Assembly (NCBI GenBank): GCA_964447495.1
Contig: CAYUTF010000004.1
Coordinates: 13,438 to 77,437, forward strand
Reading direction: 5' to 3'
DNA from: an uncultured archaeon
Lineage (GTDB): Archaea > Asgardarchaeota > Lokiarchaeia > Sigyniarchaeales > SOKP01
Length of the DNA stretch: 64,000 nt
The translations under genes were made by a program, and so were the position numbers. Positions 1,661 to 21,604 of the stretch are shown in pieces; the first letter of the stretch is position 1, and each line of letters opens with the position of its first letter. The notes beneath the pieces were generated by a model. That model was given only the letters and a program-made list of their open reading frames with translations, did no database searches and was not told where the DNA came from.

Positions 1661-1662
1661 AA

Positions 1663-4600: not shown

Positions 4601-4674
4601 GTAGATGTTCAGCAATAGATATTTTAGGTTTTAGTGCGGAACAAATTTTTGCCATGATAAGTGGGAGGTTATGA
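1663..4674 (+). CDS. hdrA: Large tandem-module HdrA-like flavoprotein (1003 aa)
   Basis: Residues 1-435 form an HdrA core: GAGIGG, DKTFPTNDCAMCI, an inserted 2x[4Fe-4S] ferredoxin domain, and CVGSRD...YCSSVCCMY. Residues about 445-1003 form a second HdrA unit: N-terminal Cys domain FICHCGINIGG...ASCTPRTHE...RDQCSWVH, GGGITG FAD motif, CVGSRNEEHPYCSKMCC, and a C-terminal ferredoxin domain. Confidence 0.85.
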   Translation: MDKIGAVMVVGAGIGGSQASLDLGDAGYKVYLVESSTSIGGVMAQLDKTFPTNDCAMCIVSPKLVETGRHNNIDLFIKCKILDVQGDAGNFTVKILKNSLYINMDKCTGCGVCGQKCPVEAIDVFNEGLSKYKATSVKYPQAVPLVYAINKDYCIGCGVCEGVCKAGAVEYDLKDQEVTLNVGAIILAPGFDEFDPTPIKRFGYGKFKNVVTSIQFERILSASGPYAGKILRSSDGDVPEKVAFLQCVGSRDLNEGQPYCSSVCCMYTAKEAVIAKEHMDQVNPTIFSMDIRAYGKDFDKYIEHAKEEYGVRYIRSRISSIKENPSTKDLILNYEAEDGKIVQEIFNMVVLAVGLNPPNDAEFLAEKFGIELNEYKFAKTEIFNPVQTSRAGIYVCGAFSSPKDIPETVTQASAAAGCVNSLLYDKRGTLITEKILPPEIFVAGQPPRIGVFICHCGINIGGYVDVPEVTRYATTLPNVVLGDRNLYTCSADTQTIIKDKIKEYNLNRVIVASCTPRTHEPLFQETIREAGLNRYLFQMANIRDQCSWVHMHQPEKATEKAKDLVRMAVNKAREIQPLERIKLGVIPKALVIGGGITGMTAALNFASQEFETYIIEKGEEFGGHARHIYKTLEGGDVQKYLTTLIEKVENNPLIHAYTQVEIENINGYIGNFKTSILYGKDKKRIEFDHGVVIVATGADAYQPKEYLYGEDDRVITQSEFEQVLNETDGINKINKIVMIQCVGSRNEEHPYCSKMCCAEAIKNALMAKEMNPLTEIVILYRDIRTYGFKEKYYRLAREKGIVFIRYEKDNLPQVNINEGHLEVALKTPKLGNISLDSDIVVLSAGIVANKEQNEQLGKILKVPINDDKFFLEAHVKLRPVDFATEGVFVAGLAHFPKPIEDSISQANAAVSRACTIISKKEIEAEGKVATINMARCVGCGMCVENCAYNAIELIEDRRFGRVASINQALCKGCGACSGNCRCSAIDILGFSAEQIFAMISGRL

Positions 4675-5126
4675 AAATGAATGAAGTTATAATAGAAGAA
4701 GCACAAGAAAAAGAATGGGAACCTAAAATTATAGCTTTCTTATGTAATTGGTGTTCTTATGCAGGAGCGGACCTAGCGGGAGTGAGTAGGATTCAATATC
4801 CACCTAATATAAGAATAGTTAGAGTTCCTTGTTCAGGACGTTTAAATCCCTTCTTTTTAATTAGAAGTTTAGTTGATGGATGGGATGGTGTTTTAGTTTC
4901 AGGATGTCATCCCGGAGATTGCCATTATATTAGTGGAAATTTAGTTGCTCGAAGGAGATTTGCGATTCTTAACGATTTATTAGAATTTTTTGGGATAGAA
5001 CCTGGAAGGGTGAATTTCATGTGGGCTTCTGCGGCTGAAGGAGAACGATTTGCAGTTTTGGTGCGTAAAGCTACAGCGATTGTTAAAAAGTTAGGACCCA
5101 ATAAGAAATTTAAAAAAGAGTGGTAA
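4671..5126 (+). CDS. mvhD: MvhD/FlxD-like iron-sulfur subunit (short form, 151 aa)
   Basis: FLCNWCSYAGADLAGVSRIQYPPNIR...CSGRLNP...GCHPGDCHY. ATGA overlap with the upstream hdrA. Paralog of 890-1660 without the C-terminal extension. Confidence 0.85.
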   Translation: MKMNEVIIEEAQEKEWEPKIIAFLCNWCSYAGADLAGVSRIQYPPNIRIVRVPCSGRLNPFFLIRSLVDGWDGVLVSGCHPGDCHYISGNLVARRRFAILNDLLEFFGIEPGRVNFMWASAAEGERFAVLVRKATAIVKKLGPNKKFKKEW

Positions 5127-5129
5127 AAT

Positions 5130-6152
5130 GTGAGTAAACTTAATTTAGATAATCAAAAAATTCAAGAAAAGATGCGAGAGGTTGCTCGAAATCTATTAAA
5201 AGAGAAAAAGGTTGACTTAATTATAGGTTATTCGGAAGGAACTGTACCATTATCCTCCGCGCCGGTTTTTATTAGAAAGGAAGAGGAAGTTGATAAATTA
5301 ATATGGAATAATTTATGTTATGTAAATTTAGCTAAGTATTTGATTCCTAACATAAAAGAGAATGTAGATGGAAAACTTGTGGATTTAAAGGTTGGAATCA
5401 TCTCAAAAGGATGTGTTGCTCGTTCGATTATTCATTTAATGGTTGAACATCAGATCAAAAAGGAAAATATAACAATAATAGGAATTAAGTGTAATGGTAT
5501 TATAAATCGTAGGAAAATTGAAAAAGAAGTTGGGGCTGAAGAAATTATTGAAACGTATCTATTAGATGATAATTTTATTGTAAAAGGAAAGGATTTTGAA
5601 AAAAAGTTTAATTATGATGAATATATGAATGAGTTGTGTAAACACTGTACAATAAAGTCACCTCCAAAATCAGATTCACTAAAGGATATTATTGTGGGAG
5701 AAAGTCAAGAGAGTTATTCATTAGAAGAGAAATTTGAAGATGTCATAGAATTTGAAGAAAAAACACCTGACGAGAGATGGAATTATATGAAGGAATTACT
5801 ACAAGATTGTACAAGATGTTATGCTTGTAGAGAGGCATGTCCTTTATGTTATTGTAATTTGTGTTTTGTTGACCAAAATTTACCGACTTGGTTTGGAAAA
5901 ACCTCTGAAATATCTGATATTCTGATATTTCATATGGTACGTGCTCTGCATCTTGCAGGTAGATGTGTTGAGTGTGGTGCTTGTAGTAGTGTTTGCCCAA
6001 TGGGTATTGATCTAAGCATAATTAATAGAAAAATCAATAGAATTGTAAAAGATCGGTATGATTTTACTTCAGGGCTTTCATTAGAAAAACTTCCTCCAAT
6101 GATGGCTTTTAAAATGGAGGACAAACAAGAATTCATGTTGGAGGAGGATTGA
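5130..6152 (+). CDS. Fe-S oxidoreductase subunit with two ferredoxin-type [4Fe-4S] motifs, HdrA/MvhD-associated
   Basis: CTRCYACREACPLCYC and CVECGACSSVCPMG motifs. GTG start 4 nt after the mvhD stop, same operon. No CCG (HdrB-type) motif. Confidence 0.55.
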   Translation: MSKLNLDNQKIQEKMREVARNLLKEKKVDLIIGYSEGTVPLSSAPVFIRKEEEVDKLIWNNLCYVNLAKYLIPNIKENVDGKLVDLKVGIISKGCVARSIIHLMVEHQIKKENITIIGIKCNGIINRRKIEKEVGAEEIIETYLLDDNFIVKGKDFEKKFNYDEYMNELCKHCTIKSPPKSDSLKDIIVGESQESYSLEEKFEDVIEFEEKTPDERWNYMKELLQDCTRCYACREACPLCYCNLCFVDQNLPTWFGKTSEISDILIFHMVRALHLAGRCVECGACSSVCPMGIDLSIINRKINRIVKDRYDFTSGLSLEKLPPMMAFKMEDKQEFMLEED

Positions 6153-6153
6153 G

Positions 6154-7212
6154 TTGATTGAAAAGTTAGTAGATAAAAAAGATATTCCAAAATTAGTCAA
6201 AGAACTTACTGAAAAATATAATTTTTATGCACCTATCAAGGTAAATGGTAATATAGAATTTAAAAGAGTAGAAAATGTAGGCGATATTGAATTAAATTTT
6301 TTTAATTCAAAAATACCACCAAAAGAAATATTATTTCCAAGAATGGAAACACTATTTACCTATAACATTAACGGAAAAAATATAGAGATAAAAGAACCAG
6401 AAAAAAGTGAGAAAAAAAATATAATCTTTGGGATCCGTCCCTGTGATGCTCATAGTTTTGTTCTCCTTGAAAACTTTTTTGGCTTTGGAGAATTTAAAGA
6501 TAAATTATTTCTGAATAAGAGAAAAAATACAATATTAATGGGGATCGGTTGTAATAATCCCCGAAATACATGTTTCTGTACCTCCCTTGAGGGTCATCCA
6601 TTTAAAAAAGAGGATATGGACGTGTTTTTAGTGGATTTAGATGATAAATACCTGATCACTCCAATTACAGATATAGGAAAAGAAATAATAGATGCTTTAT
6701 CATGGTTAGTCGATGCCAAAAAACCTGACCTTGAAAAGGCAATGAAATTGTCTGAAAAAGCGGAATCACTTATATCAACAACATTAGATATAAAGGATTC
6801 ATATAAGATTTTAGATTCACAGTTTTCAAATCCTATATGGAAGGAAATAAGTGAAACATGTATCGGTTGTGGGACTTGTTCATTTCTCTGCCCAACTTGC
6901 ACTTGTTTCGATGTAATTGATGAAGAAGATAAATATAATAATAAAGGAAGAAGAATACGTATTTGGGATACTTGTCAATCCTGTCTTTATTCACTCCACA
7001 CAAGTGGCCATAATCCAAGAAATGGTGGCATCGAGCGATGCAGAAATCGTATACTTCACAAGTTTAGTTATTATCCAACAAATTATGGCCTTATAGGCTG
7101 TGTAGGATGCGGTCGTTGCATTCAATTATGTCCAGTAAATAATGATTTAAGAGCTATAATTAAAAAGATGAATGAGATCAATAAAAAGGAGGAGAAATCT
7201 ATCATTGCTTGA
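6154..7212 (+). CDS. AsrA / sulfhydrogenase-beta-like 4Fe-4S dicluster protein (Flx-type electron-transfer subunit)
   Basis: GIRPCDAHSF segment plus CIGCGTCSFLCPTCTCFD and CVGCGRCIQLCPVN cluster motifs. TTG start preceded by GGAGGAGG. Followed by an AsrB/PyrK-like partner. Confidence 0.6.
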   Translation: MIEKLVDKKDIPKLVKELTEKYNFYAPIKVNGNIEFKRVENVGDIELNFFNSKIPPKEILFPRMETLFTYNINGKNIEIKEPEKSEKKNIIFGIRPCDAHSFVLLENFFGFGEFKDKLFLNKRKNTILMGIGCNNPRNTCFCTSLEGHPFKKEDMDVFLVDLDDKYLITPITDIGKEIIDALSWLVDAKKPDLEKAMKLSEKAESLISTTLDIKDSYKILDSQFSNPIWKEISETCIGCGTCSFLCPTCTCFDVIDEEDKYNNKGRRIRIWDTCQSCLYSLHTSGHNPRNGGIERCRNRILHKFSYYPTNYGLIGCVGCGRCIQLCPVNNDLRAIIKKMNEINKKEEKSIIA

Positions 7213-8044
7213 TATATATATTCCAATGTTAACCAATATTAAATCAATAACATCTGAAAATAAAGCAAACGATATAAAAACTTTTGAGTTTGTATTTCAA
7301 AAGGAAGAAGACCTGAATAGTTTTAAATATGTCCCTGGTCAATTTTCTGAGTTAAGTATTATTGGAAAAGGTGAGTGCCCAATAGGAATTGCTTCCTCCC
7401 CAACTGAAGAGGGATCAGTTAAGTTCACTATTAAAAAAATGGGAACAGTGACCTCACATTTTCATAAAAGAGAAGCAGGGGATGTGGTAGGAATCAGAGG
7501 TCCTTTAGGAAACGGATGGCCTGTAGAAGATATGAAAGGAAAAAATATTGTGATCATCGGAGGAGGTTTTGCCTTTTCTACATTACGTTCTCTTATCGAA
7601 TATATATTACATGAAGAAAATAGAAAGAACTATGGAAATTTAACAGTTATATATGGAAATCGGGATTCTGGAGAGGTATTATATAGATCTGATTTAGAAA
7701 AATGGGAAAAACGAGACGATATTAAACTAGTACTCACGATTGATCGCGAAGAGAAGGGTTGGAACAAGAAGGTTGGATTTGTAGCCCCCATTGTTAAGGA
7801 AGTAGCACCCTCTTCTGAAAATGCAATAGCAGTAGTTTGCGGTCCTCCTATCATGATAAAAACAACGATTTCAGTACTGGAAGAGTTGAAGTTTGAAGAC
7901 GAGCAAATCCTTAACTCCCTAGAGATGCGAATGAAGTGCGGAGTAGGCAAATGTGGGAGATGTAATATTGGAAATAAATATGTTTGTTTAGATGGCCCCG
8001 TTTTTTCACTAGCTGAGTTGAAAAAACTGCCAAATGAATATTAA
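7172..8044 (+). CDS. FAD/NAD(P)H-binding oxidoreductase with C-terminal [2Fe-2S] (AsrB / sulfhydrogenase-gamma / PyrK family; FlxA-like)
   Basis: Ferredoxin-reductase-type fold signature (PGQF...GxxS, GGGFAFS) and terminal CGVGKCGRCNIG...VCLDGPVF motif. The start is uncertain: TTG at 7205 (12 nt after GGAGG) or ATG at 7226 would avoid the 41-nt overlap. Confidence 0.7.
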   Translation: MRSIKRRRNLSLLDIYIPMLTNIKSITSENKANDIKTFEFVFQKEEDLNSFKYVPGQFSELSIIGKGECPIGIASSPTEEGSVKFTIKKMGTVTSHFHKREAGDVVGIRGPLGNGWPVEDMKGKNIVIIGGGFAFSTLRSLIEYILHEENRKNYGNLTVIYGNRDSGEVLYRSDLEKWEKRDDIKLVLTIDREEKGWNKKVGFVAPIVKEVAPSSENAIAVVCGPPIMIKTTISVLEELKFEDEQILNSLEMRMKCGVGKCGRCNIGNKYVCLDGPVFSLAELKKLPNEY

Positions 8045-8071
8045 AAAAAAATTAAAAGGTAGAAAAATAAA

Positions 8072-9154
8072 ATGGTTAAAACTTTTGAAGATTTAATAAA
8101 AGATGTACATGAAAAAGGTTTATGTGGAGAGTGTGGAGGTTGTGTTACTTTTTGTTCAGCTGGAGATATCGGTGCAATCATGATGTCTGAATCAGGACCT
8201 CCAAAATATGTAAATAAAGATAATTGTAAGGAATGTGGATTCTGTTATTATGTATGCCCTCAAACTCATGTTCTTAATGATCTTTTAAATGATAAATTTG
8301 GATATGTACCCCCAATAGGAAAATGGATCAATATTACTTCAAGTAAAACTACTTCTGAGGAAATAGCAAATAAAGCAACTGATGGAGGAGTAGTTACCTC
8401 CATATTGAATTATCTCTTAGATCATGATTTAATTGATGGTGCCATCGTATGTAAAAAAGAAGGTCCTTTTAATAGGGTACCATTTTTAGCCACGTCAAAA
8501 GAAGATTTAATACAAGCGGCAGGATCATACTATGATCTTTCAAAACAAGTTATTGGATTAGAAAAGTATAATACTTTTATACCAACCAATACTAAATTAA
8601 AAGATTTACTTAATTCAGATTTGTTAAACATAGCAATAGTAGGCACTCCTTGCCAAATACATTCCATTAGAAAGATGCAACAATTGAGTATACTTCCAGC
8701 TCATATTGTCAAATATACCTTGGGCCTTTTCTGTAATTTAAATTTCTCTTTTAATGATGATGATCGGAAAAAAATGGAACAGATTTTTCATTTTAAATTT
8801 AATGAAGTTGAAAAAATGAATATTCGTGAAGATATTATTCTTAATCTTAAAGGAAATAAAATCAAACATATCTCCTTTTCAGATATTAATGAATTCGCAC
8901 GTCCAGCATGCAGAGCGTGCCCTGATTTTTCTAATATATATGCTGATTTATCATTCGGCGGATTAGGATCCCAAGAAAAATATACAACTACAATAATAAG
9001 AACTAAAACTGGCGCAGAGATATATAACAATGCTCTTAAAGAGGGTTATATTAAAGAAGTCAATCGATTTAGTCCATCGAATATAGATTCAAATATTTTA
9101 GGAAAAATCATTGATTTCAGTGAACGAAAAATAGAAAGAGCTGAGAATTTTTAA
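8072..9154 (+). CDS. Coenzyme F420 hydrogenase/dehydrogenase beta-subunit family protein (FrhB/FdhB/FpoF-like)
   Basis: N-terminal CGECGGCVTFC and CKECGFCYYVCPQ motifs, then DGGVVTSILNYLLDHDLIDGAIV and GTPCQIHSIRK, typical of the FrhB family. Last gene of the redox cluster. Confidence 0.7.
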   Translation: MVKTFEDLIKDVHEKGLCGECGGCVTFCSAGDIGAIMMSESGPPKYVNKDNCKECGFCYYVCPQTHVLNDLLNDKFGYVPPIGKWINITSSKTTSEEIANKATDGGVVTSILNYLLDHDLIDGAIVCKKEGPFNRVPFLATSKEDLIQAAGSYYDLSKQVIGLEKYNTFIPTNTKLKDLLNSDLLNIAIVGTPCQIHSIRKMQQLSILPAHIVKYTLGLFCNLNFSFNDDDRKKMEQIFHFKFNEVEKMNIREDIILNLKGNKIKHISFSDINEFARPACRACPDFSNIYADLSFGGLGSQEKYTTTIIRTKTGAEIYNNALKEGYIKEVNRFSPSNIDSNILGKIIDFSERKIERAENF

Positions 9155-9183: not shown

Positions 9184-10149
9184 TCATAGATTAAAGATAT
9201 TTCCGGTATTATATATTGTTCCGTCCAATTCTAATTCAATTTGTCCTCCCGATGCGATCTTAATTGCAGAACTAATCCCTTCTAATACATTATTCATCAT
9301 AAAATCATATGCTTTGAAGCAATCTTTTAGTTGTTCACTTTGATTTTCCAAAAGGCATTTAGAAATTGCAGGAATAAGTTCTGGAATGAAATCTTGGCTA
9401 ATCATAATCTCCTCTGAATCGACCAGGGTTTCTCTTGAAATAGAAAAAGGATTTTGGACATCAATCTTTGCCAGCATCACTTTACATACAAATAGTGAGG
9501 CTTTAATCTCCCTCATTATGAATTTTATTCGGTTTTTATCATCTAAGTATTTTTTAAAGGTCAAAGCTTGTATTATGTCATCATTAGTGATGGTATCTTT
9601 TGTATCCAATAATTTACTTACTCGCTCCGAGACTCTCTTCGTTGAAAGCATTAGTTTTAAATTCATGGTATTTTTTTCTGTATAATCCTTGTGAAAAGCT
9701 GAAAGGAAGGACCTATACCCTTCATCTTGGGACTTATCCAATTGAAATCTCTTTTCCTTAAATTTATCCATAAAATCTTTTATAATGAGAAATTTCAATT
9801 TTAATCGATGTAGGGCAAGATAGAGGCACATTCTTGTTTTCGTATATGCTACAACGTTTCCCATCCTGAATCTGTCGTGATGATCTCTTTCGTACATCAC
9901 TATAGGCTTTAATCTGTTTACCACTACATCAATGAAATATTCGATTATTCTTTCTAATGGTTCAACATCTACTACTTTAAAAACTTCTATAAGTGATTGA
10001 CTAGTAGGTTGAGATTTTGGGATTTCTTTAATCATATCATAATTATATCGTTCTAATAAGAGAGAAGTTAAAGCTTCCATTTCTAGAACGGTCCTACAGG
10101 GAACAAAAACTTTATTAATATCATTTAGAATAACACTACTTTCTGGCAT
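9184..10149 (-). CDS. Hypothetical protein (321 aa), no recognisable domain; divergent from the Dna2-like/Mre11/Rad50 operon
   Basis: Long uninterrupted ORF with protein-like, mostly helical-looking composition. No motif recognised. It shares its first 13 nt (ATGCCAGAAAGTA, MPES) with the divergent gene at 10445. Confidence 0.6.
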   Translation of the reverse strand: MPESSVILNDINKVFVPCRTVLEMEALTSLLLERYNYDMIKEIPKSQPTSQSLIEVFKVVDVEPLERIIEYFIDVVVNRLKPIVMYERDHHDRFRMGNVVAYTKTRMCLYLALHRLKLKFLIIKDFMDKFKEKRFQLDKSQDEGYRSFLSAFHKDYTEKNTMNLKLMLSTKRVSERVSKLLDTKDTITNDDIIQALTFKKYLDDKNRIKFIMREIKASLFVCKVMLAKIDVQNPFSISRETLVDSEEIMISQDFIPELIPAISKCLLENQSEQLKDCFKAYDFMMNNVLEGISSAIKIASGGQIELELDGTIYNTGNIFNL

Positions 10150-10444
10150 AATGAATCAGACTATAAAATCATTAATCTTTGAATTTCACGATTCATTGAA
10201 TTGAATCTTAAATTAATTTAATATCAATGGTTATTATCAAACACTATGTAATAAAATTTTACTTTCATTTAGAGTATTCTTTAGAGAATAATGAGCTTGC
10301 TTAGTTAGTTTTATGATATCTTTTAATAATTAAATAATTATTAAATTTATTTAAAAGGAATTAAGTTTATTAGTAAACTGAATACGCCTATTATTTTATA
10401 AAGTTTATCAAATTAACTTCACAATAAAAATCTCAGGTTGGCAT
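10150..10444. promoter_or_regulatory. Divergent promoter/control region between the orphan gene and the Dna2-like operon
   Basis: 295-bp very AT-rich spacer between two divergently oriented starts. Multiple TATA-like tracts. Short palindromes TATTCT-ttag-AGAATA (10275-10290) and GATTCA-n6-TGAATC (10190-10207). No transcription start can be called from sequence alone. Confidence 0.4.
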
Positions 10445-13400
10445 ATGCCAGAAAGTAATTTTTCTAAAACCCTACTGCAGAGCTATATCATTACCAATTG
10501 TAAAAGACGTTTATTTTTAGAGTTGGGGAGAAATCAACCGCAACTTTGGTTTGATCCTGTAAGAGATGTTCCCTCTAAACCCCCAGAGCGGTTGTTATTT
10601 CAGAAAAAATATTTAGTAGATAATGGGAAAAAATTTGAAAAGGAAGTATATTCATATCTCAAAAATTTAAAAAATACTAAATATAAAATCAGTGATAATG
10701 GCAATATCACAAATTCTGCTTTAAATAAGGAATTTTTAATCCAGTGTCATGATTTTTTGAAAAATAATCAAGATCAGATATTGATGTTGCTAGAATTTCA
10801 ATATAATATTCCACAATCATTTTTTTTTGATATTTTTCCTTCTAGATCTGGAATTAAATCTATTCCAGTTGATTATGCTGATCTCAGACCAGATATTATC
10901 TTATTAGGTAATGATATTAATAGATATGTCGAAGAAGTGTTTGAAATAACTCATGAAGGTTTAATTCACAAAGTGAGCCAATCTGATTTAAACATAAGGA
11001 TAGGAATTTCGATTTTTGATATAAAATTTATTCAAGATGAACATGTTAGCAAAAAGCACTTTTTAGAAGTATTTTATTATTTGAAGGCTCTTGCTATACA
11101 ACTTAGAGAATTGAATCTTCACGAACAATTTTATATAAGAGCCAATTTAAATGGTATTTTTCCTCTACCTGGAGATAAGAAATTAGGTGATATTCATATA
11201 ATTCAAGATCTTTTTGAAAAATCATTTGTAAATATTATTAAGTGGCGGGAAGCAGATCGTATATTTTCACGAGTGATGGATACAATAAGGACATTATGGT
11301 TAAATTCGCCTTGTCCTATTGAACAAATCGATATCAATATTCACCAAGGGTGTGGATATTGTCAATATATAGAAGACTGTAAAATAACTTTAGGAATGGG
11401 AGAGGATAATGATCCAAAAGAATGGTCCTCTCGATTACTACCATTTACTTCTCAATCTATTGCCCAACAGTTGATAGAGGAATATAATTGTAATACTATT
11501 GGAGATGTATTAAATAAAATAGATGATATTAAAATCGGTACCATTCCAAAACCATTATACTCTGAATTACCCACTCTTAAAATGAAAGCGGAGGCTATTG
11601 TAAATAATAGAACTGTCTTTCCGTCAGCAGGACAAACACATTCTTATGCCATACCTCGCTACTCTCCGATTGCGATTAATTTTGATGTAGAATATGATAG
11701 GAATAATGACAAGATTTTTGCTATAGGTATTTATTTAAAGATTTTTATCCATTCTAAACTGAGTTATCATGCAATTTTTGATAATTGGTGGAGAGTTTGG
11801 AAAAATTCTTTAACCAAAAAAAGTTCTCCAGCTGAGATTCAAAAGGAATTAAATCAATACCTTATTCGAGAGATTCCTTTAGAAATAGTTGAGCGTTTTT
11901 TAAAAAATCTTTCCATATTAAAATCAATTCAGATATATTTAAGAGGAGAAAAGTCAAAAGAAGGGACAATTATACACTATAACTTTGCCAGAATAAATAA
12001 AGACAATATAAAAGACAGTGAAGCAAAATTAATTGTAAATGCCATACATCGGTTTAATATAATTTTGGAAATTTGTAATATTCTTGAAGATTTTATTGTT
12101 ATTGATGACCAATATGGAAGATATTTTGGTCCTGACACTAGTATATTCTATTGGTCACGAAACCAATTAGATCATTTTCAAGATATGATGGAACGTCACT
12201 TAGATTACATTTTAAGCAAACAAGAAGCACGTGAAGCCTATCAATCAATATTAATGTATTTTACTCCTTCAGATAGTGAGGTAAGTCACCCTTACCAGCA
12301 TAAAAAATTATTTGATGTCCAAGCATTTGTAGATTCGTTTATAGGATTTCCAGATATAATTAATTATACATGGCATGGTATAGCTGAAAGGTTGTTTAAT
12401 TATCATAGTCATCCAAAATATTGGATTCCGCATTTCAATTTTTTAGATCTAACTAATTGGTTAAAATATCTTTCTAAGACAGATAAGTTGGATAAATTGA
12501 AAATAGAGAATGAGATTAAACATCAAATAGTTATGAAACTTAACTTCATCAATAGAATTAGAGAGCATTTCCAAAGAGAAGGACGTTATAATTTATCTAA
12601 AAATGCAAGGGTAATTAGTAAATCTCAATATGGAAGTGCGATATTACCTTATTTCTATCACGATATTGCTCATGTATGGTATCTCTTTTCAAAATTGAAT
12701 AACGCCTTACAACAACAGGATGATGAATATTATCGAACGATCTTTCCTCAATTTAGTATAGGTAAGTTATTTTCAGCACGAGTAAATAAACTTGAATTAC
12801 ATGATTCATCAGGTAAGACGAAATATTATACTTTTGAAACAAGAGATTTATCCAGTAATATGAAAATAAGTGAAGGTGACGTTGTATTATTAATTCCAAA
12901 CTTCAAACGTGGGATGAAACTAGACAAACAAATTTTTAAGTGGCAAATATATATTGAAAAAATAACATGGGATAATTCTATCAATGGAAATCGCATAACT
13001 ACCAAACCTACTTATAGTAATATATTTGAACAATGCGAAGCAGAAGATATAGATCCTAAAACTCAGCAATGGTACCTTTATCCTATAAGTTCTGACAATT
13101 GGTCGAATAAACTTCACAAACCTAATAACACAGGCTTATTAGAACGTGAAGGATTTGGACGTTCCTGGTTAGGATTTCGACTCGCTTATTTATGGGGCAT
13201 ACGTACTGATCCTACTTTACTTTGGCCTCCAAAATGGGATTATTCTACTCCAGTAATTTATTTTTTTGCTCCGGAATTATTGATGCATTTTTCGAATTCA
13301 TTTCAAAATGAACTTTCAACTCCTATATATCCTATCCCCGATCCTTCTCAAAAAGAAGCAATTATAAATTCCTTAAATCATGTTATTTCTGGAATTCTTG

Positions 13401-14917
13401 GTCCTCCTGGCACTGGAAAATCACAAACTATAGCTGCTTTAATTGATGAGTTTATAATCCGCAAGAAAAAAGAAAAAAAACCGTTCAAAATATTAGTTAC
13501 ATCATTTTCTTATGCAGCACTTCGCGTTGTTATTGAAAAAATAAGAACAGGGAGAACTATAAATAATACAACTACAGAATCCTCAAAAATACAGATGGTA
13601 TTTTTGCGATCGGAAACACAAGACCCTATTGAATCAAAAAGAGGGAGTAGATATATTGATGATTTACTCAGAACGGGAACATCATGGAAGTTGAATGGAG
13701 AAAGTCGTATTGTAACTCCTAAAAATTCTTTAGAACAATCATTAGAAGAATCATTTATCCTTTTTACAAATGCACATCATTTGTATTATTTACATGAGCG
13801 AGTAGAAGATGATTTTGCTTTTGATTTAATCTGTGTAGATGAGGCAAGTCAATTACCCACTGATTATTTCATGTCAAGTTTATTATATATCCATAAATTT
13901 AATTTGAATCTGAAAAAGCCAGAAAATCTTGACATTACTTTTAATCATGATGTTAAGAATAAAGAGGATGTTATTAATCTTCAAATCGATAAAAGTTCGA
14001 TTTCGTTTGGAATTGAAGACCTCACAAAAATTGTAATTGTAGGAGATCATAATCAGTTACCCCCAGTGAGGGTGAAAAATCCACCAAAAAATTTGGAACT
14101 TATTCTTGATAGTCTTTTTAGTTATTATATTAAAGGACATAAAATATCAAAAAAACAACTTAAGATTAATTATCGCTCACACCAAGATATTGTATCTTTT
14201 ACTTCACTATTGGGGCTTTACAAGAATATTAAACCCTACAAATCTAATGCGTCAAGAGTCTTGGAAGGAAATCTAAATAATATGAAACTTTCATGGGTTA
14301 AAGAAGTATTGTCACCCGAAAGAGTTGTTTGTTCCCTAATTCATAATCGTAAGTTTGAAATCGGGATTAGTGAATTTGAAGCAGATTTAGTATGTGAATT
14401 AGTATCGGGATTCTTTGATATGATAAAACCTCAAAGTATTAAAGAGGAAAAAAAATTTTGGGCGGAACGCATAGGAGTCGTAGCGCCCCATAATGCCCAA
14501 GGGCGGGCAATCATTAGGAAAATATTTACAAAATTTCAGGAAAGAACGTATTTAACTGATGCCCGATTAATGGAATATCTTAAAAGTACTATCTATTCAG
14601 TAGAAAAATTTCAGGGTTCTGATCGAGATTTAATAATTACCTCAATTGGATTATCAGATGAAGATAAAATAAGTACTGAAGAGGATTTTATTTTTAATTT
14701 GAATCGATTCAATGTCTTGACATCTAGAGCTAAAAATAAAATTATTTTTATTTCCAGTGATAAATTTTTGCAATATATTCCTGAAGATAGAAAAGCACTG
14801 GAAAATGCGTCTAAAGTGTATCTATATGCAGAAGATTTTTGCAATCAACAAATTCTTCTCACCGTAAAGAATGAAAAGAATGAAAATGAACAAATCATAT
14901 TTAAGTATAAAAATTAA
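10445..14917 (+). CDS. Dna2-like multidomain nuclease-helicase: Cas4/AddB/Dna2-type Fe-S PD-(D/E)XK nuclease + HhH + RNase H-like (TM0106-family-like) domain + beta-barrel + Upf1/Dna2-type SF1B helicase
   Basis: Cys19 plus C303-x2-C306-x5-C312 (CGYCQYIEDC). Nuclease motifs RPD150 and FD192-I-K194, then EVFYY. HhH-like residues 331-357. FD414-V-E416 exonuclease-like DxE. ISEGDVVLLIP barrel. Helicase motifs GPPGTGKS (13400-13423), VDEASQ (13835-13852), VGDHNQLPPV, YRSH, APHNAQ, KFQGSDRD and NVLTSRAK. Confidence 0.8.
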   Translation: MPESNFSKTLLQSYIITNCKRRLFLELGRNQPQLWFDPVRDVPSKPPERLLFQKKYLVDNGKKFEKEVYSYLKNLKNTKYKISDNGNITNSALNKEFLIQCHDFLKNNQDQILMLLEFQYNIPQSFFFDIFPSRSGIKSIPVDYADLRPDIILLGNDINRYVEEVFEITHEGLIHKVSQSDLNIRIGISIFDIKFIQDEHVSKKHFLEVFYYLKALAIQLRELNLHEQFYIRANLNGIFPLPGDKKLGDIHIIQDLFEKSFVNIIKWREADRIFSRVMDTIRTLWLNSPCPIEQIDINIHQGCGYCQYIEDCKITLGMGEDNDPKEWSSRLLPFTSQSIAQQLIEEYNCNTIGDVLNKIDDIKIGTIPKPLYSELPTLKMKAEAIVNNRTVFPSAGQTHSYAIPRYSPIAINFDVEYDRNNDKIFAIGIYLKIFIHSKLSYHAIFDNWWRVWKNSLTKKSSPAEIQKELNQYLIREIPLEIVERFLKNLSILKSIQIYLRGEKSKEGTIIHYNFARINKDNIKDSEAKLIVNAIHRFNIILEICNILEDFIVIDDQYGRYFGPDTSIFYWSRNQLDHFQDMMERHLDYILSKQEAREAYQSILMYFTPSDSEVSHPYQHKKLFDVQAFVDSFIGFPDIINYTWHGIAERLFNYHSHPKYWIPHFNFLDLTNWLKYLSKTDKLDKLKIENEIKHQIVMKLNFINRIREHFQREGRYNLSKNARVISKSQYGSAILPYFYHDIAHVWYLFSKLNNALQQQDDEYYRTIFPQFSIGKLFSARVNKLELHDSSGKTKYYTFETRDLSSNMKISEGDVVLLIPNFKRGMKLDKQIFKWQIYIEKITWDNSINGNRITTKPTYSNIFEQCEAEDIDPKTQQWYLYPISSDNWSNKLHKPNNTGLLEREGFGRSWLGFRLAYLWGIRTDPTLLWPPKWDYSTPVIYFFAPELLMHFSNSFQNELSTPIYPIPDPSQKEAIINSLNHVISGILGPPGTGKSQTIAALIDEFIIRKKKEKKPFKILVTSFSYAALRVVIEKIRTGRTINNTTTESSKIQMVFLRSETQDPIESKRGSRYIDDLLRTGTSWKLNGESRIVTPKNSLEQSLEESFILFTNAHHLYYLHERVEDDFAFDLICVDEASQLPTDYFMSSLLYIHKFNLNLKKPENLDITFNHDVKNKEDVINLQIDKSSISFGIEDLTKIVIVGDHNQLPPVRVKNPPKNLELILDSLFSYYIKGHKISKKQLKINYRSHQDIVSFTSLLGLYKNIKPYKSNASRVLEGNLNNMKLSWVKEVLSPERVVCSLIHNRKFEIGISEFEADLVCELVSGFFDMIKPQSIKEEKKFWAERIGVVAPHNAQGRAIIRKIFTKFQERTYLTDARLMEYLKSTIYSVEKFQGSDRDLIITSIGLSDEDKISTEEDFIFNLNRFNVLTSRAKNKIIFISSDKFLQYIPEDRKALENASKVYLYAEDFCNQQILLTVKNEKNENEQIIFKYKN

Positions 14918-14926
14918 GGTATCATC

Positions 14927-16498
14927 ATGAGTTCTGTAAAGTTTTTACATTTAGCAGACATTCACTTAGGAAAAAAACAATACAATATTTTACAAAGATA
15001 TTTTGATTATTTTGAAGCCTTCCGATCAGTATTACATAAAGCAATTGAACAAGAAGTAGATTTTATTCTAATAAGTGGAGATTTAATTGATAGTGATGAA
15101 GGTGTAAATCCTTCTATGTTAAGAGAGATTATTAATATTCTTACTTCTTTTAAAACTGAATGTATCAAAAATCTACAAAGAGAAATACCAATAATATGTA
15201 TTGAAGGAAATCATGAAAATCCTCTTTTCTCTGATCTTACTTGGTTAAAACTAGTGGCAGATTTAGATTTTATAATTTTACTATCAGGAGATTACGATAA
15301 TAAAAAAAATCAAATTTCTTTTGAAGAATATTCCTCTACTGCGCATTCGGGTGGTAAGATTGTAATTAAAAATTGTAGTATTTATGGATTGAACTATTTT
15401 GGTAGTGCTACTTCTGATTTACTCCCTCTTTTGGAAAATGCTATTTCGAGGAATGAAAATACTTTTAATATTTTAATGATGCATTTTGGTATTACTAATT
15501 ACGATGATAAGAAAACGGGGATAAATTATTCTCCTATTCTTGAAAAGTTACATCAATCAATTGATTATTTAGCATTAGGGCACTTCCATAAGCAATATAG
15601 TATACCGGACCGTCAACCATGGATTTTTAATCCGGGAAGTCTGGAAGTGAATGAGGTCTCTGAAACCTTTCAGGAAAGAGGAGCATTTCTGATTGAAGTC
15701 TTAGACAATAAGAAAATGCAAGTGAGAAGATTACTATGCGTTGAAGGAAATACAATGGAACGTCTTTCAATTCCTAATCGAAGGTTCATGGTTTTGAAAT
15801 ATCTTTCGATTGAAGGGCTTAATTCATTCCATGAAGCTCAAGATTACATTATTAGAGAATTAACTAAGTATGGTGTACCTCTTAAATCAAATCAAACTCT
15901 TGAAAAAACAAACTTAGATAAACCCATTCTCTACTTTGCTGTTGGAGGAGTAATTAGCTATTCACAATTAGAAGTGGATTTAACTTCACTCAGAAATAGA
16001 ATTAATGAAAAATTTGATATTTTAGGATTAAAATTAAGCAACAGACTAATTTCTAGTATGGACCAAGAAATAGCCTTTGACAAGGATTTAAGTGTGGAAG
16101 ATATTGAAAAAGAGATATTCCTCGGAACACTTGATTTAGAAAAGCGTTTTAAACCCTTTAAAGGACAGATATATGATATATTTCAAAATTTAAAAACGCA
16201 ATTAGGTGGGAAAATAAATTATAAGAAGATAAAAAGTCAAGTAGAATTATGGATTGTTTCTGATAAGGACATCTTCAATCAATTCTTATCTGAAATTAAA
16301 CATAAAAATGCTCTGACAGAAAAAAAAGAAGAACAGATTTCGCCTAAAAAAAAAGATAGAAAAAAGAAAAACCAAAAAATTTTAAAAGGTGAGGAAGAGA
16401 AGGAAGAAGAACAAGATCTAAGTGATATTGATTACAATGACTTATTCGATGGGGAGGATATTGATGATTTAATTGATGATGAGGATTTAGATTTATAA
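14927..16498 (+). CDS. mre11: Mre11 double-strand-break repair nuclease with Lys-rich then strongly acidic C-terminal tail
   Basis: Phosphoesterase motifs LADIHLG, SGDLIDS, EGNHENP, MHFG and LGHFH. The N-terminal about 100 aa read like archaeal Mre11. Start is 9 nt after the upstream stop, with AGGT upstream. Confidence 0.85.
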   Translation: MSSVKFLHLADIHLGKKQYNILQRYFDYFEAFRSVLHKAIEQEVDFILISGDLIDSDEGVNPSMLREIINILTSFKTECIKNLQREIPIICIEGNHENPLFSDLTWLKLVADLDFIILLSGDYDNKKNQISFEEYSSTAHSGGKIVIKNCSIYGLNYFGSATSDLLPLLENAISRNENTFNILMMHFGITNYDDKKTGINYSPILEKLHQSIDYLALGHFHKQYSIPDRQPWIFNPGSLEVNEVSETFQERGAFLIEVLDNKKMQVRRLLCVEGNTMERLSIPNRRFMVLKYLSIEGLNSFHEAQDYIIRELTKYGVPLKSNQTLEKTNLDKPILYFAVGGVISYSQLEVDLTSLRNRINEKFDILGLKLSNRLISSMDQEIAFDKDLSVEDIEKEIFLGTLDLEKRFKPFKGQIYDIFQNLKTQLGGKINYKKIKSQVELWIVSDKDIFNQFLSEIKHKNALTEKKEEQISPKKKDRKKKNQKILKGEEEKEEEQDLSDIDYNDLFDGEDIDDLIDDEDLDL

Positions 16499-16509: not shown

Positions 16510-19230
16510 ATGTTATTAAAAAAAATTGAATTGGAAAATATTAAAACTCATAAGAAAACAGTAATCCCTTTCAAGAAAGGGTTAAATGTCTTTCATGGAA
16601 ATAATGGTACAGGAAAATCAACGGTATTAGAGATGATTGGGTTTACATTATTCGACTATTTAGAAGGAAGATCCCATGATGTATATGTGAGAGATATTAA
16701 TAATGATAAACAAGTATTTGGAACTATAAAATTATGGATAATCGGTCTGAATAACGAACCATATATTATAGAACGTAATATTGGCAAATCTGAAATAGCA
16801 GTATATAATGCTTTAACTAATCGTAAAATAGTTAAGATAGAGAAGATATCTCAGTTAAAAAAGTGGATCGAAACTCAGATAGGGCTTAGTAAAGGTATTG
16901 AACTTGATAAATTATTTAAAACATCAATTGGAATACCTCAAGGAACCTTTATTGACCCTTTCCAAAGGGAACCTAGAGAAAGAAAGAATTACTTTGATCC
17001 AATTTTAAGTTTAAAAATTTATGAAGTTATTTGGAGTGAACTAGGAAAATTAGGAAAAGGAGCATATGAGAGACTTTTACATGAGATTAAGGAAGAAATC
17101 AGTGAAATCACTGGTGAGATTAAAAATAAGTCGGTTTTAATTAATAACATAGATAAAGTAACTAAGGATTTTGACGCTTTAGAAATAAAAGTTGGTAAAA
17201 TAAAAGAAGTGGGAAAAAAGATTAAAGAGAAATTTGATGAGTTAAAAAATTTAAAAGAGGAGAGTAAAAGTGTTCAAGAAGATTACGAAAAGTTACAGCT
17301 TAGAGAAAAAGATGCACAAATAAGGGTTTCTGAATTCATTATTAAATTGAATCAGGTTAAAGAAGCTAAGCTTATTTGTGATAAAGCAAAGAATAATTAT
17401 GAGCAATATGAACTACAAACAAAAGAACAGAAGAAACTTGAAGCTGAACTGAGCGATCTTCAAGAAAAACAAAAAATATTACAAGATTTAAAAACGGACC
17501 ACTTACATATAGAAAGTGAGAAAAATAATTTAATAAATCAAATTAATGAAGCAAAAGAAGCCCTCGAAAATAGTATTAAACTTAAAAGCAAATACAATCG
17601 ATATCAGGAACTTGAAGCAGATTTATTATTAATAAATGAAGATTTGACCCGATTTAAGACTATAGATGAGGGTTTAACTAAAAAAAGATCAGATTCAGAA
17701 ACTTTTAAAAAACAATTAGAGCTATCCCATAAAAAAATTGAATCATTTTCCAAATTAGAAACGAAGCTTAAAGAATTAGAAACCCTTGAATTAAAAAAAG
17801 AGGGTATAAAATTAATTATATCCGATTTAGAAAAAGAAATAGCTTTAATTAATCAAAATTACGAGTATTTATTAACAGGTAAATGCCCTTTCTTTAATCA
17901 AACTTGTAGAAATATTGAAGAGAAGAAATCTGATCCGAAATCTCTTTTAAAACAAGTAAAATATAAGAAAGATTTATTGAAAAAAAGCATAGACGAAGTA
18001 AAACAATTAGAAAAAGACTTAGAAGCAAAAGAAGAATTTCATATCAAAATTGAGAGTTTAAAAGAAGTAAGAATTAGATTAGCGATTAATCAAAAACGAT
18101 TTGAAGAACTAAATGAAGAAATAAAAAAAGAGAATGAATATATAAAAAATAAAGATACTTATTGGGAAAGAAAGAAGAAATTGGATGATGAGAAGAGAGC
18201 CTTAGAAAATTCAATTAATGATTATATCACTTTCAGTAAATTATCTGAGAAGCTTCCTGAATTAGAAAAAAGAATGAATCCTTTAATGTCAAAATTAGAG
18301 GAAATTGAAAAAGTAATGCGTGATATGGAGAAAGAAACCAAAAAATTGGATCAAATTCCCAAATTATTCAAAAAAATCCAAGAAGAATTAGCGAATTTAA
18401 AGAAAGACTACACATTATATCAAACTCATATTAAGCAAGCAGAAGAACTTCCTAAAATAGAACAAGATTATAATTCTAGCCTATCTGCTTTAGAGAACCT
18501 CAAATTACAAATACAAGAAAACCAAAAGCTGATAAAAGACTTGAATTCTAAATATGATGAAGCTGAGTTTCAAAAGTACGAAGAATATTACAGAAAAAAC
18601 GAGAAAACTAAAACTGAGTTAGAAACACGTATGAATGAACGAAAATTGAGACTAAATGAATTAAATGAAGAACTTAAAAAAATTGAGGAAATTGAAACTA
18701 ATTTAGTTAAGTTAAATAAAGAAAAAGATAATTTAGAAGTCCAGCAGTTATTTATTGAAAAATTAAGGATGTGGATAAGAGAATTTATCCCGAAAATGAG
18801 AAGTGCATTAATAAGCAAGATAAATATTATTGCTTCGGAAATATATAGAGATATAAGAGAGGAAGAGGATGCGGTTCTCAAATGGCGGGATAATTATGAT
18901 ATTGAAATCGTTACTCCTAAAACTGTTAAAAATTTCTTTAGACTATCTGGAGGAGAGAAAATGTCAGCAGCATTAGCAGTCCGATTAGCAATACTAAAAG
19001 TGCTAACAAATGCTAATTTTGCTTTTTTTGATGAACCCACTACTAATTTAGATGAGACAACCCGTAAGAATTTGAGTAAATATATTTATAATATAAAAGG
19101 GTTTGAACAATTATTTGTTATCTCCCATGATGATTCCTTCAAACGTCACAGTGAATACGTTGTAAGATTTACTAAAGATGCAAATGAGATTACGCATATC
19201 GATTATCTTACTAAGGTTAATGAAGAATGA
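16510..19230 (+). CDS. rad50: Rad50 SMC-like ATPase
   Basis: Walker A GNNGTGKST, Q-loop IGIPQGTF, long K/E/L-rich coiled coil, central Cys pair GKCPFFNQTC, signature LSGGEKMSAALA, Walker B FAFFDEPTTNLD and H-loop ISHD. AAGGTGA lies 6 nt upstream of the ATG. Confidence 0.85.
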   Translation: MLLKKIELENIKTHKKTVIPFKKGLNVFHGNNGTGKSTVLEMIGFTLFDYLEGRSHDVYVRDINNDKQVFGTIKLWIIGLNNEPYIIERNIGKSEIAVYNALTNRKIVKIEKISQLKKWIETQIGLSKGIELDKLFKTSIGIPQGTFIDPFQREPRERKNYFDPILSLKIYEVIWSELGKLGKGAYERLLHEIKEEISEITGEIKNKSVLINNIDKVTKDFDALEIKVGKIKEVGKKIKEKFDELKNLKEESKSVQEDYEKLQLREKDAQIRVSEFIIKLNQVKEAKLICDKAKNNYEQYELQTKEQKKLEAELSDLQEKQKILQDLKTDHLHIESEKNNLINQINEAKEALENSIKLKSKYNRYQELEADLLLINEDLTRFKTIDEGLTKKRSDSETFKKQLELSHKKIESFSKLETKLKELETLELKKEGIKLIISDLEKEIALINQNYEYLLTGKCPFFNQTCRNIEEKKSDPKSLLKQVKYKKDLLKKSIDEVKQLEKDLEAKEEFHIKIESLKEVRIRLAINQKRFEELNEEIKKENEYIKNKDTYWERKKKLDDEKRALENSINDYITFSKLSEKLPELEKRMNPLMSKLEEIEKVMRDMEKETKKLDQIPKLFKKIQEELANLKKDYTLYQTHIKQAEELPKIEQDYNSSLSALENLKLQIQENQKLIKDLNSKYDEAEFQKYEEYYRKNEKTKTELETRMNERKLRLNELNEELKKIEEIETNLVKLNKEKDNLEVQQLFIEKLRMWIREFIPKMRSALISKINIIASEIYRDIREEEDAVLKWRDNYDIEIVTPKTVKNFFRLSGGEKMSAALAVRLAILKVLTNANFAFFDEPTTNLDETTRKNLSKYIYNIKGFEQLFVISHDDSFKRHSEYVVRFTKDANEITHIDYLTKVNEE

Positions 19231-20458: not shown

Positions 20459-21604
20459 TTAGAAGCATCGGTGTATTACCTGCGGTCCCATCTCCTTATA
20501 CTCTCGACGGGTAACCCACATGCGATGAAATGTTTTCAGAGAGCTTAAAATTGAGCCACCAATCCACACGGAGTACATACGCTCGGGAGGAGCGATAATT
20601 TTAACATCAACTGATTCTGGAATTTGTTCTTTAATTTCTTTAGTCAAACGTTCCTTAATTCCAGGAAACATTGTGGAACCACCAGAGAGCACAATATTGC
20701 TGTAAAGATCTCTTCGCAAGTCAACATCACACTCTGAAATAGAACCTACAATCACATCGTCTAAAGGTTCTAATTCTTTTCCAATAACAGAGGGATTAAA
20801 GAAACATTCAGGGGCTAAAAATCGCTCTACGCCAACATTAATTGTTTCTCCATCCGGAAGCATATAGCTCTTCTCCATTCCAGCAACTTTCTTACTAAGC
20901 ATCATTTCTTTCTCGGGATCTATTGCCACATAGCATAATTTCTCCTTTATATCTCGTACAATTTCCTTTTCAGCGGATGTAGTGAATGAATAACCTTTTT
21001 GTCGAAGCAATCTTTGTAAATAGGTAGTGATATCACGTCCTGCAAGATCAATTCTCTGGATAGCGTGACTTAAGGCGAATCCTTCGAATATTGGAACAAC
21101 GTGAGAGACTCCATCTCCAATATCTATAACACATCCAGTAGTACGACCAGAAGCATAAAGAGATAAGACTGCTTGCATTGCAACATAGAGAGCAGGCACA
21201 TTAAATGTTTCAAACATTATTTCGGCCATTTTTTCTCTATTTGGTCTTGGATTTAGAGGAGCTTCAGTTAAAAGAACGGGATGTTCACTTGGATCAATTC
21301 TCAAATCGGTGTAAAAGGTATAATGCCAGATTTTTTCCATAGCGGTCCAATCTTCTATAATACCATGCTCGACGGGGAACATTAATTTTAATACACCCTT
21401 CAATTGCATAGCTTCTTCACCGATGTAATACTCACGAGTATAATGCTCAACATCAGTCATTATAGATTCATATTTTGGATAACCTATAAGTGTAGGAAAA
21501 ACCGATCGAGGTTGATCTTCACCTGCGAAACCATTCTTGGAAATACCGGTACCATTGTCTACGACTAAAGCCTTAGCGTTTAAAAAACTTTCTTCTTCTG
21601 CCAT
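20459..21604 (-). CDS. Eukaryote-like actin (Lokiactin-type)
   Basis: Full-length alignment by eye to eukaryotic actin: [57 protein letters not shown] and C-terminal HRCF. Acidic N-terminus MAEEES. Visibly higher G+C than its neighbours. Confidence 0.95.

Follow-up and report, generated by a model that had tools for sequence, protein, structure and literature searches.

We analyzed a 64,000-nucleotide stretch of the genome of an uncultured archaeon of the class Lokiarchaeia (contig CAYUTF010000004.1, positions 13,438 to 77,437; hereinafter, the window), focusing on one large gene that occupies window positions 10445..14917 on the forward (+) strand, starts with ATG and encodes a protein of 1490 amino acids (aa). 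This gene is the Lokiarchaeal member of a widespread, mostly bacterial, uncharacterized family of single-chain helicase-nucleases. The protein encompasses, from the N-terminus to the C-terminus, an iron-staple PD-(D/E)XK nuclease, a helix-hairpin-helix (HhH) segment, an RNase H-like domain, a helical stalk, a beta-barrel, and an Upf1/Dna2-like motor of helicase superfamily 1B (SF1B). The main functional clue, absent from the first-pass annotation of this sequence, is that the gene forms an operon with mre11 and rad50. This linkage in Lokiarchaeia points to long-range resection of the 5' strand at double-strand breaks, and we estimate the probability that the protein is a long-range 5'-strand resection enzyme, acting after Mre11-Rad50 and analogous to HerA-NurA or Dna2, at roughly 55%.

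Linkage to mre11 and rad50 in Lokiarchaeia

In the window, the nuclease-helicase gene heads a compact operon in which mre11 (14927..16498, +; 523 aa) starts 9 nucleotides (nt) past its stop codon and rad50 (16510..19230, +; 906 aa) starts 11 nt past mre11. The mre11 product contains the Pfam Metallophos domain and has archaeal Mre11 as its top NCBIfam match (E 1.2e-30); the rad50 product contains SMC_N and SbcC_Walker_B, and its top NCBIfam match is archaeal Rad50 (E 2e-51).

The same arrangement is found across the group. A scan of one genome per species detected the gene in 32 loci, including those of the two cultured organisms, P. syntrophicum MK-D1 and L. ossiferum; 31 of the 32 records carry Promethearchaeota, Promethearchaeum, Lokiarchaeum or uncultured archaeon in their titles, and the remaining one is from a metagenome-assembled genome (MAG) labelled Bathyarchaeota. 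Among the 26 loci that are informative, that is, have enough flanking sequence (two loci fetched earlier, L001 and L002, are included), mre11-rad50 are adjacent to the gene in 25, being located downstream on the same strand in 24 and divergently upstream in one. The outer flanking genes vary among genomes, though mre11-rad50 stay in place, and in the neighborhoods compared, the nuclease-helicase gene is not accompanied by replication genes.

Two further features of these loci were observed. In MK-D1 and a related MAG, a gene for a 424-aa membrane protein is inserted between the nuclease-helicase gene and mre11 (L026 12968-15581; L022 7079-8353), and the insertion site in MK-D1 also carries an antisense open reading frame (ORF) of 383 aa. 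At the zinc-hook site of the Rad50 protein encoded in the window (residues 459-466, window 17884-17907), the sequence is C-P-F-F-N-Q-T-C, that is, C-x6-C instead of the canonical C-x-x-C; CP[FI]xxxxC is present at this place in all 19 full-length Loki Rad50 ORFs retrieved besides the window (L001, L002, L007, L009, L010, L012, L014-L017, L020-L023, L025, L030, L032, L033, and L035).

A helicase-nuclease family and its domain architecture

A search of 1.84 billion representatives with a profile of residues 1-960 retrieved 339 cluster representatives at E <= 1e-3, in two tiers. The first (Loki-type) tier matches the entire profile and consists of the Loki proteins along with some divergent proteins of 1560-1720 aa. 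The second tier comprises proteins of ~1370-1540 aa that match profile positions 9-428 and ~520-830 and possess the same SF1B helicase; it is bacterial and broad, with members in Priestia megaterium, Rubrobacter marinus, Pseudoalteromonas phenolica, Phycisphaerae, Chloroflexi, and Deltaproteobacteria. The initial impression that such a merged architecture is unusual is contradicted by the size of this family and by the existing NCBI names of its bacterial members, such as 'bifunctional RecB family nuclease/DEAD/DEAH box helicase' for the Thioalkalivibrio protein. The Loki profile aligns collinearly with 19 proteins of the bacterial tier (E 1e-27 to 1e-42), in the helicase as well as in the N-terminal module.

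Closer to the window protein, a homologue search returned a database entry that is 100% identical to it and 63 other homologues; those with source names come from MAGs of Lokiarchaeota, Promethearchaeota and Hermodarchaeota and from Lokiarchaeum ossiferum. A second, word-indexed search with a mixed Loki/bacterial alignment of the N-terminal region found nothing beyond the family, and tblastn of residues 1-960 against plasmids gave no match. A more distant tier is represented by a 1567-aa haloarchaeal protein with the same NCBI bifunctional name that is encoded on a Salinibaculum plasmid (NZ_CP129994.1; L043 2807-7510), next to the genes for thymidylate synthase, dihydrofolate reductase, and DNA polymerase; this protein contains the sequence CQNCPHNEIC and a Walker A motif at about residue 1042, and is matched by the tier-2 hidden Markov model at E 6e-12. 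Homologues that lack the helicase exist as well (P0064, 876 aa; P0063, 1031 aa), and P0064 (L004 10001-12631), at 33% identity, keeps every nuclease and cysteine residue.

We counted conserved residues in 112 full-length homologues and, separately, examined an alignment of 38 homologues that reaches down to 32% identity. The N-terminal domain (residues 1-325; 10445..11419, +) is recognizable as a PD-(D/E)XK nuclease of the RecB/Cas4/AddB/Dna2 type by its 1+3 cysteine 'iron-staple' pattern and conserved motifs, the key residues being C19, D150, E167, D192-x-K194, E208-x3-Y212, and C303-x2-C306-x5-C312. All residues that the first-pass annotation had assigned to this domain, including R148-P149-D150, D192-I-K194 and E208-V-F-Y-Y212, were found where it placed them, and the combination of four cysteines and nuclease motifs that it had singled out is near-invariant: C19 is present in 105 of the 112 homologues, and D150, D192, K194, Y212, C303, C306, and C312 in 110-111 each. 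The 38-homologue alignment shows no variation in R148-P149-D150, E167, D192, K194, E208, Y212, C303, C306, and C312, and almost none in C19. The nuclease and cysteine residues are also retained in the distant bacterial tier; given this breadth of conservation, the pattern cannot be attributed to chance. The arrangement C...C-x2-C-x5-C around the RecB motifs II, III and 'QxxxY' is that of the iron-staple nucleases AddB, Dna2, Cas4, and Bad (PMC7430649); in the Loki protein, the 'QxxxY' motif reads ExxxY. The domain is thus predicted to bind an iron-sulfur (Fe-S) cluster and to possess nuclease activity.

In the AlphaFold2 (AF2) model, residues 1-325 are confidently predicted (predicted local distance difference test score, pLDDT, ~80-97), with D150 and D192-x-K194 on neighboring strands of an alpha/beta nuclease domain. 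The fold matches of this domain are weak, namely, the Cas4 protein SSO0001 in PDB (E 0.65) and a phage PD-(D/E)XK protein among the viral models (E 7e-3). A Pfam scan of residues 1-960 of 16 family members yielded no match, and profiles of residues 1-325 and 1-960 had no meaningful match among the PDB sequences. Identification of the protein as Cas4 was rejected, there being neither a Pfam or NCBIfam Cas4 match nor a fold match better than that to SSO0001, and the neighboring genes being mre11 and rad50 rather than cas.

The segment that follows (residues 326-400; 11420..11644, +) consists of the HhH and a linker helix. The stretch originally proposed as an HhH, LLPFTSQSIAQQLIEEYNCNTIGDVLN at residues 331-357, is present and fits the predicted helices 337-346 and 352-361, which flank T351-I-G-D354 in the model. 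Its residues P333, S338, L343, and T351 are conserved in the 38-homologue alignment, bacterial relatives show weak matches to HHH_5 and DUF4332 at the equivalent position, and the alignments of relatives to the NCBIfam model TIGR03491 span this segment.

Residues 401-660 (11645..12424, +) constitute an RNase H-like domain, as indicated by the strand order in the model, a viral fold match, and homology to TIGR03491 via the bacterial tier. The AF2 model of residues 1-700 (pLDDT 89; predicted template modelling score, pTM, 0.82) displays, in this region, the order beta-beta-(helical insertion)-beta-alpha-beta-alpha, with strands 409-418, 423-436, 507-517, and 565-569 and a helix at 523-550. This core order, combined with an acidic residue on beta1 (D418) and another at the start of alpha1 (E526), is the hallmark of the RNase H-like superfamily. 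The top fold match of residues 1-700 in BFVD is a 471-aa Megaviridae 'RNase_H superfamily protein' (E 2.3e-7, probability 1.0, 683 columns), followed by phage PD-(D/E)XK proteins and then by polymerase or DnaQ-like exonucleases. Foldseek found no match to these residues in PDB at E <= 1e-3; the weak PDB matches include the R2 restriction-like endonuclease, RNase HII, RNase H2, Cas4 SSO0001, Argonautes, and EndoV.

The conserved polar residues of this domain are E416, D418, E526, E548, Y641, and H644. Along with W570, three of these (D418, E526, and Y641) are conserved across the Loki-type and bacterial tiers, and D418 and E526 are invariant in both. At other positions, the tiers diverge. Position 416 is E in 109 of the 112 Loki-type proteins but D, E or N in the bacterial ones; E548 (110/112) and H644 (109/112) are not conserved in the bacterial tier. 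At the end of beta4, position 571 is occupied in the Loki-type tier by S (80), G (24) or A (6), never by D, with Ser in the window protein, whereas 15 of the 19 bacterial proteins have D. The bacterial cousins, accordingly, carry W-D at the end of beta4 and an RNase H-like D/E-D...E...D set, whereas the Loki clade keeps a strongly conserved cluster of its own, E416, D418, E526, E548, and H644.

These patterns bear on the catalytic capacity of the domain. The motif INFD414-V-E416-YD, originally compared to the ExoI motif of an RNase H-fold exonuclease, is indeed there, but the assignment of D414-x-E416 as ExoI fails because D414 is not conserved: this position is variable in both tiers (A7, D5, G2, and V1 among 16 representatives), and the conserved pair is E416-x-D418. 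DEDD motifs II and III were not found either. A canonical DEDD (DnaQ-like) 3'-5' exonuclease was accordingly rejected, with D414 variable, S, G or A at position 571, and position 576 variable, and so was a DEDD ExoIII motif, for which Y641 and H644 are conserved yet the residue at +4 varies (E, G, S or D). Thus, structure prediction supports the RNase H-like fold suggested for the middle region, but the canonical beta4 aspartate is replaced by Ser, Gly or Ala throughout the Loki clade, and therefore a second nuclease activity is unproven. Catalysis by this domain is possible; judging from the conserved residues, it could be a second, non-canonical nuclease or, alternatively, a DNA-binding or strand-separating domain. 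The Loki-type tier also has a Trp-rich helical insertion in this domain (residues ~442-500, window 11768-11944; W448, W449, and W452 conserved) that is missing in the bacterial tier.

A second AF2 model, of residues 660-1490 (pLDDT 80), consists of two long helices, a barrel, and the helicase. The long helices, which could form a 'stalk', belong to residues 661-775 (12425..12769, +) and are numbered H22-54 and H81-105 within this model, with low confidence in parts. The beta-barrel domain (residues 776-885; 12770..13099, +) has six strands at model positions 119-221 (about residues 778-880); the motif ISEGDVVLLIP, from which a barrel had been anticipated, lies at 808-818, and the six-stranded barrel precedes the helicase. 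In the 38-homologue alignment, S803, N805, P818, R822, and W842 of the barrel are conserved, and the region is collinear with the bacterial tier.

The SF1B (Upf1/Dna2-like) helicase core (residues 961-1445; 13325..14779, +) matches Pfam AAA_11 and AAA_12 and was the only part of the protein recognized in whole-protein scans with Pfam, NCBIfam, and PADLOC. As the first reading of the sequence had it, the core is complete: motifs I-VI are intact between ~965 and 1445 and near-invariant in the 38-homologue alignment, including Walker A GPPGTGKS (986-993), DEAS (1132-1135), GDHNQLPP (1200-1207), QGSDRD (1390-1395), and TSRAK (1426-1430). The top match of the window protein among PDB sequences is Dna2 (phmmer, E 7e-9); with the family profile, Dna2 (E 3.5e-15, 57.6 bits) is followed by Upf1 (E 1e-13, 52.7 bits). 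Foldseek with residues 660-1490 likewise retrieved mouse Dna2 first (5ean_A, E 2.3e-24), then Ighmbp2, Upf1, Sen1, and Aquarius. By analogy, the polarity of the helicase is predicted to be 5'->3'.

Relatives, known systems, and genomic surroundings

The N-terminal region can be linked to the TM0106 family. TIGR03491, the NCBIfam model of this family, matches the N-terminal regions of 9 of 12 tier-2 proteins, with a best E-value of 1.4e-10, a match whose score does not reach the curated cut-off of 97.45 bits, as well as one of 16 Loki members (E 8e-4); the window protein itself has no match to this model. In the relative P0170, residues 297-517 align to TIGR03491 positions 193-370, a stretch that extends from the cysteine motif through the HhH into the RNase H-like domain, of which it includes the first half. 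Combined with the viral RNase_H fold match, these matches confirm the design recognized in the first-pass annotation, in which a TM0106-type module makes up the N-terminal 650 residues. The TM0106 proteins contain a four-cysteine Cas4-like nuclease, HhH, and RNase H-like domain in the same order as the Loki protein, but stand alone, at ~460 aa, whereas in the Loki protein, the module is fused to the barrel and the SF1B helicase within 1490 aa, harbors the Trp-rich insertion, and bears Ser at the position of the beta4 Asp. The accompanying idea that the protein merges this design with that of Dna2 is largely borne out with respect to the four modules, but not with respect to two nuclease activities, which are unproven.

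Dna2 (mouse; 5EAN, 5EAW, 5EAX) shows the same order of Fe-S PD-(D/E)XK nuclease, barrel, and SF1B helicase, and the 1+3 cysteines that bracket its RecB motifs are found in the Loki protein as well, a likeness at the level of motifs only. Each could plausibly act with Mre11-Rad50 in resecting the 5' strand. Unlike Dna2, the Loki protein contains ~330 residues (HhH and RNase H-like) and a helical region between the nuclease and the barrel; its nuclease domain has no detectable sequence similarity to that of Dna2 (in the comparison of profiles with PDB, the Dna2 match covers the helicase only), and its helicase is barely nearer to Dna2 than to Upf1. With so slim a bit-score margin and no Dna2 similarity in the nuclease part, orthology with Dna2 is unsupported.

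Bad, the DNA2-like helicase-nuclease of Geobacillus stearothermophilus, possesses an Fe-S cluster and is a 5'->3' translocase/helicase and a single-stranded DNA (ssDNA) endonuclease of 1245 aa, with K815 as the Walker A lysine; for its central domain, the authors inferred nothing beyond a short predicted coiled-coil (PMC7430649). Compared by layout alone, Bad and the Loki protein agree in combining three parts in one polypeptide: an Fe-S nuclease of the RecB family at the N-terminus, a domain in the center, and an SF1B helicase at the C-terminus. The Walker A lysine of the Loki protein is K992 of 1490 aa. Unlike for the Loki protein, linkage to mre11-rad50 has not been reported for Bad.

The bacterial bifunctional proteins (~1430 aa; for example, those of Thioalkalivibrio, Priestia megaterium, and Rubrobacter marinus) share the catalytic residues and cysteines with the Loki protein at ~20-25% identity, but differ from it by the W-D at the end of beta4 and by the lack of the 442-500 insertion. 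The three neighborhoods of these proteins examined for comparison are defense islands, often with DNA methyltransferases next to the gene, and do not include mre11-rad50. HerA-NurA, by contrast, is a helicase and nuclease pair whose genes accompany mre11-rad50, which is the genomic niche of the Loki protein, and its presumed task is likewise the same. It is not homologous to the Loki protein, however, and consists of two proteins: the hexameric FtsK-like ATPase HerA, and NurA, with an RNase H-like nuclease fold of its own.

In the window, an intergenic region of 295 nt, presumably containing the operon promoter (10150..10444, +), separates the nuclease-helicase gene from a divergent 321-aa ORF (9184-10149, -) that belongs to no Pfam family and has no counterpart adjoining the nuclease-helicase gene in any other locus compared. 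Farther upstream are eight redox genes in the same direction (90-9154, +), which encode two FlpD (MvhD-like) proteins, a 1003-aa HdrA-like flavoprotein with ferredoxin domains, several 4Fe-4S proteins, a FAD/NAD-binding protein, and an FrhB-like protein. A Lokiactin gene (20459-21604, -; Pfam Actin, E 6e-133) is located 1.2 kb past the operon, followed by a gene for a 479-aa leucine-rich-repeat protein (22051-23490, +).

Proposed function and alternatives

DNA-end resection is the committing step of homologous recombination, for which bacteria, archaea, and eukaryotes use unrelated machines: AddAB or RecBCD in bacteria, Dna2 with a RecQ helicase (or Exo1) in eukaryotes, and HerA-NurA in other archaeal mre11-rad50 operons. 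In the resection pathway that we propose for Lokiarchaeia, a double-strand break would be recognized and opened by Mre11-Rad50, whereupon the SF1B motor would engage the strand with the 5' end and travel along it 5'->3', delivering it to the Fe-S nuclease. Cleavage of this strand would leave a 3' tail as the substrate of RadA. By analogy with Dna2 and Bad, the likeliest activity of the enzyme is 5'->3' translocation on ssDNA combined with endonucleolytic cutting of the tracked strand; cooperation with Mre11-Rad50 is suggested by the shared operon.

Several observations weigh against a resection role. The nuclease domain has no significant sequence or PDB-fold match to Cas4, AddB or Dna2, and Upf1-like SF1B helicases are often RNA helicases. 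Within the group, one locus (L011) lacks mre11-rad50 within 6 kb downstream, and in Promethearchaeum, mre11 is separated from the nuclease-helicase gene by other genes. Furthermore, mre11-rad50 are missing from all five neighborhoods of bacterial or bacterial-looking relatives, in four of which the gene is surrounded by defense-type genes and mobile elements, so that the ancestral role of the family may be defense rather than repair.

The main rival is, indeed, a defense function inherited from the bacterial relatives, whereby the enzyme, alone or with Mre11-Rad50 as an end sensor, would degrade invading virus or plasmid DNA as a restriction- or RecBCD-like effector. The genomic context of the relatives speaks for such a function. 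One of them is Tn7 cargo, beside an N6_N4 methyltransferase gene (L005); another adjoins a BamHI-type restriction-modification system together with SIR2_2 and AAA_15 genes (L039); the third overlaps an upstream methyltransferase gene by 17 nt and is next to BrxB and BrxC of a BREX system (L040); and the fourth has type I-E CRISPR-Cas and a PLD-helicase as its neighbors (L042). In the fifth, bacterial-looking neighborhood, there are kinase, sulfatase-maturase-type, and efflux genes, with no obvious defense genes. The helicase-less P0064 (in L004) is divergent from a DISARM-like set that includes DrmE_C, PLDc_2, and a DEAD/Helicase_C protein; some relatives reside on megaplasmids, and the helicase part of the protein resembles the PADLOC models MkoA and DpdJ. 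Thus, the bacterial relatives may represent an undescribed defense gene, possibly paired with a methyltransferase. The Loki gene itself behaves differently. Its presence in 32 species-level genomes, both cultured species included, fixed beside mre11-rad50, is a core-gene rather than a patchy pattern; its partners best match the housekeeping archaeal Mre11 and Rad50; the window operon includes no methyltransferase or other self/non-self component in the ORF list or the Pfam scan; and no PADLOC model matches outside the helicase core. For the Loki protein, we therefore consider a defense function unlikely.

A Dna2-like role in replication, such as the processing of long 5' Okazaki flaps and of stalled or reversed forks, with the operon reflecting general genome maintenance, would agree with Dna2 being the top solved match of the helicase half and with the order of Fe-S nuclease, barrel, and SF1B helicase, which resembles Dna2 and Bad. 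Given the small margin over Upf1 (57.6 vs 52.7 bits), the lack of detectable similarity to the Dna2 nuclease, the ~330 inserted residues that Dna2 does not have, and the absence of linked replication genes, such a role appears quite improbable. An enzyme that acts on RNA or RNA:DNA hybrids, clearing R-loops or transcripts at breaks, is more improbable still. The helicases nearest after Dna2, namely, Upf1, Ighmbp2, and Sen1, are RNA helicases, the RNase H-like fold is supported, and RNase HII and RNase H2 are among its weak PDB matches; against these stand the absence of the canonical RNase H beta4 aspartate, the N-terminal nuclease motifs, which are those of a DNA-processing class, and the operon partners, which work on DNA ends. 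Finally, despite the existence of the 876-aa and 1031-aa helicase-less versions, the notion that the long ORF is an assembly or gene-calling fusion artefact is effectively refuted by the full-length homologues, which number over 100, are collinear, and come from independently assembled genomes, two of them closed.

Beyond resection as such, a more specific evolutionary scenario can be envisaged, one that we regard as doubtful but worth stating: in Lokiarchaeia, the place of HerA-NurA might have been taken by a Dna2-like Fe-S nuclease-helicase of one chain, recruited from a bacterial defense-island enzyme, acting in direct cooperation with Mre11-Rad50, and perhaps equipped with a second, non-canonical RNase H-like active site. 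If this is the case, an archaeon would possess a eukaryote-style 'Mre11-Rad50 plus Dna2-type' resection pathway.

Parts of this picture are already known. Fusions of an Fe-S nuclease with an SF1B helicase include Dna2 and Bad, the TM0106 module has been named, though not characterized, and NCBI has named the bacterial members of the family. In the searchable literature, we found no description of the Lokiarchaeal nuclease-helicase, and three of its features appear to be undescribed there: the HhH and RNase H-like nature of the central region, the altered but conserved site of the Loki-type tier, and the near-universal coupling with mre11-rad50 in Lokiarchaeia. A fold and candidate active-site residues can now be assigned to the previously unannotated central region of a large family of uncharacterized helicase-nucleases. 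A Dna2-like single-chain Fe-S enzyme whose gene is fixed beside mre11-rad50 in archaea closely related to the ancestor of eukaryotes would be a fourth arrangement for resection, and the origin of Dna2-type resection coupled to Mre11-Rad50 would become a testable question in the cultured MK-D1 and L. ossiferum.

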